Of a stretch of DNA of 64,000 nt, positions 1-32,150 are shown in pieces (the stretch's first letter is position 1; the number at the start of each line of letters is the position of its first letter). The notes under the pieces are model-generated. The model was not told where the DNA came from and made no database searches. It saw nothing but the letters and a program-made list of their open reading frames with translations. This DNA is from Mustelus asterias (lineage: Eukaryota): assembly GCF_964213995.1 (NCBI RefSeq), contig NC_135825.1:52824001-52888000 (forward strand). The letters are read 5' to 3'. Made by a program: the position numbers and the translations under genes.

Positions 1-1035
1 AAGGGTCTTTTTCCGGCTGGAGGTCTGTGACCAGTGGTGTTCCGCAGGGCTCTGTACTAGGACCTCTGCTATTTGTGATATATATAAATGATTTGGAAGA
101 AGGTGTAACTGGTGTAATCAGCAAGTTTGCGGATGACACGAAGATGGCTGGAATTGCGGATAGCGAAGAGCATTGTCGGGCAATACAGCAGGATATAGAT
201 AGGCTGGAAAATTGGGCGGAGAGGTGGCAGATGGAATTTAATCTGGATAAATGCGAAGTGATGCATTTTGGAAGAAATAATGTAGGGAGGAGTTATACAA
301 TAAATGGCAGAGTCATCAGGAGTATAGAAACACAGAGGGACCTAGGTGTGCAAGTCCACAAATCCTTGAAGGTGGCAACACAGGTGGAGAAGGTGGTGAA
401 GAAGGCATATGGTATGCTTGCCTTTATAGGACGGGGTATAGAGTATAAAAGCTGGAGTCTGATGATGCAGCTGTATAGAACGCTGGTTAGGCCACATTTG
501 GAGTACTGCGTCCAGTTCTGGTCGCCGCACTACCAGAAGGACGTGGAGGCGTTGGAGAGAGTGCAGAGAAGGTTTACCAGGATGTTGCCTGGTATGGAGG
601 GTCTTAGCTATGAGGAGATATTGGGTAGACTGGGGTTGTTCTCCTTGGAAAGACGGAGAATGAGGGGAGATCTAATAGAGGTGTACAAGATTATGAAGGG
701 TATAGATAGGGTGAACAGTGGGAAGCTTTTTCCCAGGTCGGAGGTGACGATCACGAGGGGTCACGGGCTCAAGCTGAGAGGGGCGAAGTATAACTCAGAC
801 ATCAGAGGGACGTTTTTTACACAGAGGGTGGTGGGGGCCTGGAATGCGCTGCCAAGTAGGGTGGTGGAGGCAGGCACGCTGACATAGTTTAAGACTTACC
901 TGGATAGTCACATGAGCAGCCTGGGAATGGAGGGATACAAACGATTGGTCTAGTTGGACCAAGGAGCGGCACAGGCTTGGAGGGCCGAAGGGCCTGTTTC
1001 CTGTGCTGTACTGTTCTTTGTTCTTTGTTCTTTGT
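1..1035 (+). mobile_element. CR1 LINE 3' part (RT C-terminus, short 3' UTR, (TTCTTTG)n tail)
   Basis: ORF 27-887 contains GVPQGSVLGP, KFADD and RPHLEYCVQFWSP; terminal hairpin GGCCGAAGGGCC followed by TTCTTTG repeats. Confidence 0.95.
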
Positions 1036-3594: not shown

Positions 3595-4078
3595 AAAGAA
3601 CAAAGAACAAAGAACAATACAGCACAGGAACAGGCCCTTCGGCCCTCCAAGCCCGCGCCGCTCCCCGGTCCAGGATTGAATCCTGAATCCAGGATCCCCG
3701 CCCAATTTTCCAGCCTATCTACATACCAATATCCTATCCACCGAGCTGTCCCTCACAGCTACGATGCTTTGTTCATTACAACCTATTAACTCACCCCCAC
3801 CCCCCCATTCCAGGCCATGTAATCTCCAGGGAGAGGCGAAAACCCAGAGTGAAAAACCCCAGGGCCAATATGGGGAAAAGAAAATCTGGGAAATTCCTCT
3901 CCGACCCCCTGAGGCGATCGAAACGAGTCCAGGAGATCACAATGGCCCTGATCGGAAAATGCTTCCCAACCCTAGTCATTTCCACTTCCACGAACACAAT
4001 ATGAATTCCCTGCCCCCGAGACAGGTTCCCAACTATCCGCAGTCTCGCTCTGTACTGGCACCAGCAAGATGATCATAG
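3595..4078 (-). mobile_element. 5'-truncated CR1 consisting only of the extended 3' UTR module
   Basis: Near-identical reverse complement of 14118-14598. Confidence 0.92.
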
Positions 4079-12157: not shown

Positions 12158-12287
12158 TAAAAGCAAAATACTGCGGATGCTGGAATCTGAAATCAAAAGA
12201 GAAACTGCTGGAAAATCTCAGCGGGTCTGGCAGCATCTGTAAGGAGAGGAAAGAGCTGACGTTTCGAGTCCAGATGACCCTTCGTCA
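12158..12287 (-). mobile_element. Penelope-like pseudo-LTR fragment with a minimal hammerhead ribozyme motif (continues at 14611-14615)
   Basis: Removing the CR1 and one TSD copy gives minus-strand AGCT-TTGACGA-AGGGTCATCTGGACTC-GAAAC-GTC-AGCT. The same repeat family occurs at 59391-59855 and 61050-61068. Confidence 0.75.
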
Positions 12288-14603
12288 CGAAATGTTCTTG
12301 GCAGACAGGATTAAGGAGAATCCCAAGGCATTTTATTCATACGTTAGGAACAAAAGGGTTGTTAGGGAAAAAATCGGACCTCTCAGGGACAAAAGTGGGG
12401 ACTTATGCTTGGAGCCCAAAGAAGTAGGGGAGATCCTAAATGAATACTTTGCGTCGGTATTCACAAAGGAGAGGGATGTGTTGACTGGGAGTGTCTCGGA
12501 GGGGAGTGTTGAACCGTTGGAGAAAATCTCCATTACAAAGGAGGAAGTGTTAGGTTTGTTAGAGAATATAAAGACTGACAAATCCCCAGGGCCTGATGGA
12601 ATCTATCCAAGGCTGCTCAGGGAGACGAGAGGTGAAATCGTTGGGCCTCTGACGCAAATCTTTGTCTCGTCACTGGACACAGGTGAGGTCCCAGAGGATT
12701 GGAGGATAGCCAATGTGGTCCCGTTATTTAAGAAGGGTAGGAAGGATAACCCGGGTAATTATAGGCCGGTGAACTTGACGTCCGTGGTGGGGAAGTTGTT
12801 GGAGAAGATTCTTAGAGATAGGATGTATGCGCATTTAGAAAGGAATAAACTCATTAACGATAGTCAACATGGTTTTGTGAGAGGGAGGTCATGCCTCACT
12901 AACCTGGTGGTGTTTTTTGAAGAAGTGACCAAAATGGTTGACGAAGGAAGGGCCGTGGATGTTGTCTATATGGACTTTAGTAAAGCGTTTGACAAAGTCC
13001 CTCATGGTAGGCTAGTGAAAAAGGTTGGATCCCATGGGATAAAGGGGGAGGTGGCTAGATGGGTGGAGAACTGGCTTGGTCATAGAAGACAGAGGGTGGT
13101 AGTGGAAGGGTCTTTTTCCGGCTGGAGGCCTGTGACTAGTGGTGTACCGCAGGGCTCTGTATTGGGACCTCTGCTGTTTGTGATTTATATAAATGATCTG
13201 GAAGAAGGAGTAACTGGGGTGATTAGTAAGTTTGCGGACGACACAAAACTGGCAGGACTTGCAGATAGTGAGGAACATTGTCAGAGGCTACAGAAGGATA
13301 TAGATAGGCTGGAAATTTGGGCAAGGAAATGGCAGATGGAGTTCAATCCTGATAAATGCGAAGTGATGCATTTTGGTGGGAATAATGTAGGGAGGAGCTA
13401 CACGATAAATGGAAGAACCATAAAGGGTGTAGAGACGCAGAGGGACCTGGGTGTGCAAGTCCACAGATCCTTGAAGGTGACGTCACAGGTGGAGAAGGTG
13501 GTGAAGAAGGCATATGGCATGCTTGCCTTTATAGGACGGGGCATAGAGTATAAGAGTTGGGGTCTGATGTTGCAGATGTATAGAACGTTGGTTCGGCCGC
13601 ATTTGGAATACTGCGTCCAGTTCTGGTCGCCACACTACCAGAAGGACGTGGAGGCTTTGGAGAGAGTACAGAGGAGGTTTACCAGGATGTTGCCTGTTAT
13701 GGAGGGGCTTGGTTATGAGGAGAGATTGGGGAAACTGGGGTTGTTCTCCTTGGAAAGACAGAGGATGAGGGGAGACTTAATAGAGGTGTATAAAATTATG
13801 AAAGGCATAGATAGGGTGAACGGTGGGAAGCTTTTCCCCGGGTCGGTGGTGATGTTCACGAGGGGTCATAGGTTCAAGGTGAAGGGGGGGAGGTTTAACA
13901 CAGATATCAGAAGGACATATTTCACACAGAGGGTCGTGGGGGCCTGGAATGTGTTGCCGGGCAAGGTGGTGGAGGCAGACACACTGGGAACGTTTAAGAC
14001 TTATCTAGACAGCTATATGAACGGAGTGGGAATGGAGGGATACAAAAGAGTGGTCTAGTTTGGATCAGGGAGCGGCGCGGGCTAATTGTTCCTTGTTTCT
14101 CGTTTCAAGGCTTCATTCTATGATCATCTTGCTGGTGCCAGTACAGAGCGAGACTGCGGATAGTTGGGAACCTGTCTCGGGGGCAGGGAATTCATATGGT
14201 GTTCGTGGAAGTGGAAATGACTAGGGTTGGGAAGCATTTTCCGATCGGGGCCATTGTGATCTCCTGGACTCGTTTCGATCGCCTCAGGGGGTCGGAGAGG
14301 AATTTCCCAGATTTTTTTTTCCCCATATTGGCCCTGGGGTTTTTCACTCTGGGTTTTCGCCTCTCCCTGGAGATCACATGGTCTGGAATGTGGGGGGGTG
14401 GGGGTGAGTTAATAGGTTGTAATGAACAAAGCATCGTAGCTGTGAGGGACAGCTCGGTGGATAGGATATTGGTATGTAGATAGGCTGGAAAATTGGGCGG
14501 GGATCCTGGATTCAGGATTCAATCCTGGACCGGGGAGCGGCGCGGGCTTGGAGGGCCGAAGGGCCTGTTCCTGTGCTGTATTGTTCTTTGTTCTTTGTTG
14601 TTG
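12288..14603 (+). mobile_element. Young 5'-truncated CR1 with an uninterrupted ORF2 RT region and an extended 3' UTR
   Basis: Frame is open to 14058 (~590 aa of RT); (TTCTTTG)n tail; TSD TTCGTCA at 12281-12287 and 14604-14610. Confidence 0.96.
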
Positions 14604-16660: not shown

Positions 16661-17195
16661 CTAGGCATGATGTAGAATTTCATTTAATTTTTCTTCATAA
16701 AACGTGCTGCTTTCTTGAAGGTCCTCCCAAGGCACGAAAGCTTCCCCCTCATTGTCGACGTAGGTGTTCCAGCAGTAGTTATACTCTGGCGCCTTCATGA
16801 TTCTCAATCGACAACCGGCCCCATGCAGCTTCCGCAGGCCCTGCTGGATCTCAGCCTCTTCCCACATGTACAGGCGGGCCACGAAGATGGTAAGCTGGAC
16901 ATTGGGGCACTTGCCCAGGTACTCAGCCAGTTTGGCAGCACACACCGCGCAAGGGCTGGAGGACACGTACCAAATGACGGAGTAGCTTAGGCTGCCATCA
17001 CACTCTGTGAAGATATCCGTGAAGAAGGCATTTTCTGCGTGTGTGCCTGCATGCTCATCCTCCACGTATCCCTCTGACCTCTCACAATCCGTGCCCTGTT
17101 TCTCCACTGAGTAGCACAAGAAGGTTTTGTGTCGTCCCGAAGAATATTCTACATTTTTGAACTGGAATTTGAAGAAAAGGGATGGCATGCGCTGT
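16661..17195 (-). CDS. APOBEC2: APOBEC2 coding exon 2 (zinc-dependent deaminase-fold domain)
   Basis: Acceptor ttttccag|A. Translation QRMPSLFFKFQFKNVEYSSGRHKTFLCY...DEHAGTHAENAFF...WYVSSSPCAVC...LYMWEEAEIQ...PWEDLQESSTFYEEKLNEIL matches APOBEC2-specific motifs (FFKFQFxNVEYSSGR, HAE, SSSPCxxC, YEEKL). Spliced CDS is 669 nt = 222 aa + stop. Confidence 0.97.
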
Positions 17196-17304
17196 CTGGA
17201 AAAGAAAGAAGCAGATGTTATTGGATATAGCAAGAAAATAAAATAGTTCTGTCTCATCAATAGCGCGTTTAGATAAAATATACAATGGTCAGAAACACCT
17301 TTAC

Positions 17305-17960
17305 ATGAAAGCAACTTGCATTTGTAAATAGAGTATCTTTATCATATTAAAAAGTCCCAAGGCACTTCATGAGGAATTTTCATAGAATCATAGAATCCTA
17401 CAGTGCAGAAGGAGGCCATTCAGCCCATCGAGTCTGCACTAACAACAATCCCACCCAGGCCCTATTCCCATAACTCCACATACTTACCCTGCTAATCCCC
17501 CTGAAACTAAAGGGCAATTTAACATGGCCAATCTACCTAACCCGCACATCTTTTGACCATGGGTATTACCATAAAGAAATTGACACAGAGGGCGGGATTT
17601 TTCAGCCACGCTCGCCCCAAAACCGGAAAATCCCACCCGAGGTCAATGGTCTGTTTCTCCCACCCTGCCAGCTACAATTCCGATGGCGGGCGCGACGGGA
17701 AAACTCCCCCCCCCCCCCAAAGTCACAGAAGGAGGTCTTAGGGAAGATGATCGAAGGTTTGGTCAGAGGTAGGTCTAAGGAGCATTTTTTTAAAAAGGAA
17801 AGAAGCAGAGAGATTTGAGGAGGGGATTCCCCAGTTTAAGCCTTGGGCTGAAGGCAAGGCTGCCAATGATGGAGGGATAAAAATTGGGCAGTGCAAGTCG
17901 TCAGATCACGAGGAGCACAGAGGTCTCTGAGGGCTGTTGCACCGGAGGATGTGACAGAAA
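17305..17960 (-). mobile_element. Old L2-type LINE 3' end with a nested SINE tail (17381-17555) and a MITE
   Basis: Tail signature CAACTTGCATTT...GTCCCAAGGCACTTCA on the plus strand, followed by degenerate 3' coding sequence. Confidence 0.6.
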
Positions 17961-31467: not shown

Positions 31468-32150
31468 CAAAGAACAAAGAACAATACAGCACAGGAACAG
31501 GCCCTTCGGCCCTCCAAGCCCGCGCCGCTCCCCGGTCCAGGATTGAATCCTGAATCCAGGATCCCCACCCAATTTTCCAGCCTATCTACATCCTAATATC
31601 CTATCCACCGAGCTGTCCCTCACAGCTACGATGCTTTGTTCATCACAACCTATTAACTCACCCCCACCCCCCCATTCCAGACCATGTGATCTCCAGGGAG
31701 AGGCGAAAACCCAGAGTGAAAACCCCAGGGCCAATATGGGGAAAAAAAATCTGGGAAATTCCTCTCCGACCCCCTGAGGCGATCGAAACGAGTCCAGGAG
31801 ATCACACTGGCCCTGATCAGAAAATGCTTCCCAACCCTATTCATTTCCACTTCTGCTTTACGAACACCATCTGAATTCCCTGCCCCCGAGACAGGTTCCC
31901 AACTATCCGCAGTCTCGCTCTGTACTGGCACCAGCAAGATGATCATAGAATGAAGCCTTGAAACGAGCAACAAAGAACAATTATCCCGCGCCGCTCCCTG
32001 GTCCAAACTCGACCACTCTTTTGTATCCCTCCATTCCCACTCCGTTCATATAGCTGTCTAGATAAGTCTTAAACGTTCCCAGTGTGTCCGCCTCCACCAC
32101 CTTGCCCGGCAACACATTCCAGGCCCCCACGACCCTCTGTGTAAAATATG
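31468..32150 (-). mobile_element. 5'-truncated CR1 with the extended 3' UTR module (third copy)
   Basis: Reverse complement of ~13915-14598. Confidence 0.94.

Follow-up and report, generated by a model that had tools for sequence, protein, structure and literature searches.

The window, a 64,000-nucleotide stretch of the Mustelus asterias genome, contains a 5′-truncated CR1 LINE copy at 12284–14603 (Table 1). An ORF2 bearing a reverse transcriptase domain and a microsatellite tail lacking poly(A) identify it as a CR1 LINE. About 190 nt past the ORF2 stop and about 220 nt ahead of the (TTCTTTG)n tail lies an RNA element with two U-rich internal loops, which the initial annotation had described as a candidate triple-helix stability element (ENE) in a CR1 3′ UTR. 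That placement is borne out, as the element sits downstream of the RVT_1-bearing ORF2 fragment and upstream of (TTCTTTG)n. So is the statement that CR1 copies end in a microsatellite rather than poly(A), with poly(A) present in 0 of the 29 tails examined (a few duplicates included). The longest A-run in the CR1 UTR, where an A-rich third strand was looked for, is 4, and neither AATAAA nor ATTAAA follows the element there. Elsewhere in the window, a related CR1 copy of the short-UTR form occupies 596–1032 (+) and is 83% identical over the ORF2 end, and an open frame at 16661–17338 (−) matches APOBEC2 (Pfam E 4e-61) and is probably the main coding exon of a host gene.

Table 1. Features of the CR1 copy, its RNA element and related copies; positions refer to the window unless a locus is named.
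Feature	Position	Strand	Evidence or remark
5′-truncated CR1 LINE ORF2, reverse transcriptase to stop codon	12284..14058	+	Open frame; Pfam RVT_1 E 1.2e-36; 5′ edge by alignment to other copies
23-nt direct repeat, first copy, bounding captured block	14061..14083	+	Occurs once in short-UTR sister subfamily
~440-nt block missing from sister subfamily	14084..14525	+	14099–14461 is 85–86% identical to non-CR1 loci of contig C16
23-nt direct repeat, second copy	14526..14548	+	Sequence comparison
Usual CR1 terminal sequence with its (TTCTTTG)n microsatellite tail; poly(A) absent	14549..14603	+	Alignment
Outer stem P1, 5′ arm	14248..14267	+	Pairs with 14367–14384; predicted fold
Side hairpin P2 of three-way junction	14277..14293	+	Stem sequence common to bird-like copies
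Stem P3, 5′ arm	14294..14300	+	Pairs with 14360–14366; 3/7 pairs double-changed, shark versus bird-like
Lower U-rich internal loop, 5′ strand	14301..14305	+	Two invariant A, then U-tract; 3′ strand 14354–14359
Middle 6-bp duplex	14306..14311	+	Pairs with 14348–14353
Upper U-rich internal loop, 5′ strand	14312..14320	+	3′ strand 14340–14347; bird-like copies without upper loop
Apical stem-loop	14321..14339	+	Predicted fold
3′ strands of both loops, middle duplex, P3 and P1	14340..14384	+	Predicted fold
Second element copy in window, another copy of subfamily	31675..31814	−	Pattern and covariance model
Third element copy in window	3808..3949	−	Pattern and covariance model
Very old CR1 ORF2 end ~100 nt upstream of double-loop homolog	L022:1666–1940	−	E 2e-4, 4e-4

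The plus strand of 14245–14390 folds with a minimum free energy of −66.9 kcal/mol (z −4.42), a stability equalled by none of 200 shuffled sequences. Both the minimum free energy and the centroid structures comprise an outer stem, a side hairpin and three nested stems with two U-rich internal loops, and the computed fold reproduces every stem, loop and coordinate that had been proposed for them. The minus strand of the same stretch folds less well (−51.6 kcal/mol, z −3.40), and across the shark copies of the element the plus strand is the better one by 9–15 kcal/mol, with 3–6 G-U pairs. Counts of outer-stem pairs did not discriminate the element from sequences with shuffled flanks; outer-stem energy alone did so, beating more than 99% of flank shuffles in shark. 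A covariance model run over 584 kb (the window and sampled genome) found four young copies and nothing else, so that the fold is not one that arises by chance. As modelled, the fold in the CR1 3′ UTR is real (z −4.4). RNAalifold gave no useful consensus on the shark alignment because of its decayed rows. No Rfam family matches the element region (best E 2.9 in 901 bases) or any of eight related loci. A hammerhead-like string on the minus strand was rejected as a candidate, being absent from the donor loci described below and from basal copies.

A pattern across the arm of the element has 9,569 exact matches in the 3.68-Gb genome and none for the reversed control, while a DNA search returned 21 loci that are 92–100% identical and all continue into the CR1 tail. 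The nearest sister subfamily has the same UTR minus a block of about 440 nt, and the 23-nt sequence that is single in the sister flanks this block as a direct repeat in the carrier subfamily. Without the element, the sister is itself abundant (at least 4,681 exact 36-mer matches), so the element is dispensable for amplification. Among the rows listed, from a set of 73 ORF2 ends in 464 kb, the carrier subfamily alone has a long UTR, and the UTR is short elsewhere. This sets it apart from canonical vertebrate CR1 elements, with which it shares the RT domain, the terminal conserved sequence and a tail without poly(A) as these are given in passages of PMC4316615 and PMC13343379; canonical CR1s lack poly(A) tails according to the latter, and those passages make no mention of such an internal module. 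The CR1 form of the block is also found in contigs from four other organisms.

Relatives of the block lie outside CR1 as well. Older homologs were found with patterns designed to exclude young copies, and the sequence downstream of one of them, used as a query, led to seven further non-CR1 loci (of its 11 matches, three were another common repeat and one was the query itself). The non-CR1 loci, which are low in copy number, share about 600 nt consisting of upstream sequence, the element and then AATAAA with a GU-rich tract. Their closest group to CR1 lies on contig C16, with seven exact pattern matches on one strand, and is partly arranged in 12–14-kb tandem units. The CR1 block stops short of the donor AATAAA, and the sequencing-run contigs cover the block shared with CR1, the donor AATAAA region being outside their coverage. 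The U-rich strand is at once the CR1 sense strand and the AATAAA strand. AATAAA stands 76–160 nt downstream of the element in nine of 14 old homologs, seven of these nine having been found with that very region as the query; the shared AATAAA block is missing from the other 5/14. Some donors are decayed, and several old ones have lost the fold (L081, z 0.14). Six shark and six bird-like frames, searched for a gene upstream of the donors, gave no Pfam match at a useful E value.

All 21 CR1 rows group together (100/99) in a 31-row tree, with nine C16 donors as their sister group. On these comparisons, non-coding host loci are the likely source from which CR1 captured the block, and the direction of the recent transfer was most probably from donor to CR1, since the sister subfamily has no block and the homology of the donors to older loci passes both block ends. 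The alternative that the C16 donors are themselves a CR1 UTR was considered and rejected: an old CR1 remnant does lie upstream of them, but an empty site exists, so the remnant inserted later. As such, the earlier proposal that a young CR1 subfamily gained a double-ENE-like module stands with respect to the gain, which the block-free sister supports, but not with respect to specificity for CR1, as the nearest relatives are non-CR1 sequences. A further old homolog, L022, lies about 100 nt after a decayed CR1 ORF2 end on the same strand; this adjacency may reflect an earlier CR1 carrier or chance neighbours.

The donor comparison also allows constraint on the element to be separated from that on its surroundings. 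Against three donors found via downstream sequence, the element is 94–95% identical and the flanks 81–83% (p 5e-4 to 8e-5). When nine donors are compared with six basal CR1 copies, 30 of 227 columns in the flank and 2 of 137 in the element hold fixed differences (p 4e-5), the two in the element being at unpaired positions. Among the nine donors, whose rows are not independent, mismatches amount to 3.8% in the flank and 1.05% in the element, with the donors retaining letters of their own inside the element. Private changes in six dead CR1 copies, used as a neutral control, reach 0.7% in the flank and 1.5% in the element; dead copies thus mutate the element no less than the flank, and a low mutation rate alone does not explain its conservation. 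All five element changes leading to the youngest copies are unpaired, and two of them add U to the upper loop. The step from basal to youngest CR1 (three element columns against about eight flank events) holds too few changes for a test. Within sharks, covariation involves 12 pairs, which is not above the 8–12 of a slid control. Judged by these sequence comparisons the structure is under constraint, so the conservation and covariation looked for in the initial annotation appear as constraint on the element and not as within-shark covariation above control.

A metagenome scan with a pattern taken from the motif that the initial annotation had placed in amphibian and reptile CR1 UTRs returned four contigs, which we take to be avian from the CR1 end in one of them. 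The copies in these bird-like contigs do not adjoin CR1 ORF2. A search of 17 kb with a covariance model built from 13 shark rows alone recovered all four loci (E 3e-6 to 3e-5), and these copies retain outer stem, side hairpin and lower loop but have no upper loop. The double loop originally described therefore holds for the shark copies and not for the bird-like ones. Two of the four loci were folded with shuffles and gave z values of −3.9 and −2.7. Stem P3 pairs in 56 of 56 cells across shark and bird-like rows, and the three of its seven pairs that changed on both sides come from two lineages, two adjacent ones possibly representing one event. The loci had been chosen by the core pattern, and their outer-stem energy beats 93–99% of flank shuffles, placing that stem moderately beyond chance (2–21 of 250–300 shuffles). 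By sequence and model alike, the bird-like contigs hold a homolog with the same three-way junction and one U-loop.

Within the available DNA, three of the four bird-like loci have neither AATAAA nor ATTAAA. In three bird-like loci another ENE-like stem-loop follows some 170 nt after the first, forming two to three head-to-tail units of about 170 nt (L024:22–84, L026:723–785 and L025 about 700–790, all −), each with an ENE-like stem-loop and the second with longer U-tracts than the first. As a family in the shark genome, the bird-type core is no more frequent than its control (four matches against five, and none for the 3′ strand), although two of the four matches, L029 and L031, are decayed homologs by the model. 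The proposed amphibian and reptile motif found partial backing in the supplement of PMC4316615, where a trimmed row of Xenopus CR1-2_XT keeps a 15-nt match to the 3′ strand, the remaining UTR having been removed by its authors. Viral and prokaryote collections gave 0 pattern matches, and a CR1 relative was not found in viral contigs.

A comparison with known stability elements helps to place this geometry. ENEs are known from viruses, MALAT1/NEAT1-type RNAs and plant and fungal transposons, as passages of PMC13541005 relate, and those of PMC12501189 count about 200 transposon ENE motifs, mostly in plants and fungi. The dENE of rice hAT TWIFB1 and the Evade ENE of Arabidopsis Copia93, as given in the same two papers, sit in 3′ UTRs of intronless transposon RNAs and have two U-rich loops split by a short duplex, with G-C pairs next to these loops. 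The U-tracts and adjacent G-C pairs of Evade are needed to bind A20 (PMC12501189). The element likewise has two U-rich loops and G-C pairs, the loops of the shark copies being split by the 6-bp duplex. U-tracts on both loop strands between short helices are kept in well-preserved donors and bird-like copies. The G-C and C-G pairs flanking the lower loop are invariant in 8/8 rows, and the upper loop is closed by A-U below and C-G above. The 5′ strand of the lower loop has only 3–4 U. A conserved adenosine triad and a 3′-end binding pocket motif mark the TWIFB1-type dENE; the invariant A of the lower loop number two (14301–14302), not three. The element differs from dENE and Evade in belonging to a vertebrate non-LTR element, in its enclosure by a three-way junction that includes a side hairpin and a long outer stem, in having copies without poly(A) signal or tail, and in having single-loop homologs in the bird-like contigs.

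The KSHV PAN ENE, which binds the poly(A) tail, has a single U-rich loop between short stems near a 3′ end (PMC13541005); the form of the bird-like copies and the placement ahead of AATAAA in the donors resemble it. We presume that the 2–3 non-U letters after the 3′ U-tract of the element also resemble the PAN and MALAT1 loops. In contrast to the PAN ENE, the element has no sequence or Rfam match to it, a shorter 5′ U-tract preceded by two A, and a cellular, multi-copy distribution. With MALAT1, MEN-beta and the MALAT1-like loci of lizards and fish it shares a vertebrate U-rich internal loop near a 3′ end, but it has no genome-encoded A-rich tract and its U-tracts are about half as long. Copies of a MALAT1-like module have spread to dozens of loci, as stated in part of PMC10869381. 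A search for a tRNA-like structure found none with ARAGORN in eight loci and none with Rfam in the UTR and the eight loci. A MALAT1-type element was rejected for want of an A-rich tract and a tRNA-like part. The literature searched yielded no ENE in a vertebrate LINE; the survey of transposon ENEs may contain an animal entry.

These features make it reasonably probable that the element is an old conserved three-way-junction RNA which CR1 captured and which would clamp a poly(A) tail in the manner of an ENE. The loops match the ENE definition and the four-U-tract Evade ENE as set out in passages of PMC13541005 and PMC12501189, respectively. At donor loci, polyadenylation at the AATAAA close by would yield a tail that folds back into the loops as U-A-U triples, and its clamping would slow deadenylation; such a clamp would be useful there, given that the element stands just before the poly(A) signal on the U-rich strand. 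CR1 has no AATAAA, no A-run above 4 and no poly(A) tail, so its third strand would come from polyadenylation after read-through to a downstream host site. The clamped tail would stabilise the intronless retrotransposon RNA, while priming of reverse transcription would stay at the microsatellite end and leave the poly(A) uncopied.

More tentatively, and with some doubt, we suggest that an undescribed class of poly(A) clamp, an ENE built into a three-way junction, is common to jawed vertebrates and predates the shark-bird split. Such clamps would precede the poly(A) sites of non-coding host transcripts present in many copies and would have been captured by CR1 LINEs more than once, helping LINE RNAs without a signal of their own to grip a borrowed tail. 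Possible traces of such earlier carriers are the old CR1 remnant at L022 and frog CR1-2_XT. If this is true, ENEs that bind poly(A) would occur in LINEs and host transcripts of vertebrates, and the class would grow by a large new group. Two sister CR1 subfamilies that differ in the presence of the block form a natural experiment on RNA stability versus retrotransposition, which also has a bearing on how 3′ ends are handled by CR1 RNAs, whose insertion proceeds without poly(A).

The same conservation would be expected if the junction served protein binding or trafficking (export, nuclear retention, a U-rich binding protein or ORF2 recruitment) and formed no triples with poly(A). We regard this as unlikely but worth serious weight, in that the U-tracts are no better conserved than the two invariant A, the junction and the side hairpin, and the ENE definition in PMC13541005 includes no such junction. 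Short U-tracts and the lack of an encoded third strand point the same way. Against it, U-tracts on both strands, flanked by G-C pairs and placed just before the donor poly(A) signal, are what an ENE predicts, and ORF2 recruitment in particular is improbable, as the sister moves without the element and non-CR1 loci conserve it.

Another possibility is that the element functions in host donor transcripts only and that its CR1 copy is a passenger from a chance capture. The loss of the poly(A) signal in CR1 and the abundance of the sister as well favour such a passenger, and the basal-to-youngest changes are too few for a test; even so we think it quite improbable, because the block was retained and reached about 9,600 copies, every later CR1 change spares the pairs, and contigs of four other organisms carry the CR1 form. 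In the tree, the long branch (0.078) over which the element was conserved leads to the CR1 clade, which also argues against a passenger, although constraint on this stem branch may predate the capture if the true donor is unsampled. It is highly improbable, finally, that the conservation is a gene-conversion artefact or that the opposite strand is the working one. So many CR1 copies (~9,600) do permit conversion, but donors keep their own letters in the element and conversion does not explain a bird-like homolog. The two strands of the bird-like copies fold within 1–3 kcal/mol of each other, as an opposite-strand function would allow, yet the 9–15 kcal/mol advantage of the shark plus strand and the AATAAA on the U-rich strand argue against it. 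The poly(A) clamp remains the reading we prefer.

The host loci themselves are rich in other repeats. The tandem units at G000:C16:18183000–18240000 (L108–L113), 12–14 kb long and 95–98% identical, each end in the element and AATAAA, contain internal repeated modules of 150–170 nt and no recognised gene; paralogous copies occur on this contig at 6.3, 11.1 and 41.2 Mb. An array of ~61-nt tandem units lies right upstream of the donor element in L076 (1–1400, +) and upstream in L088, its unit matching window 14135–14194 at about 70–75%. Gypsy-like LTR retroelement copies form head-to-tail arrays beside two donors (L092 and L093), and a truncated old homolog on the minus strand of L127 (1495–1617, oriented coordinates) retains the 3′ half of the element only.
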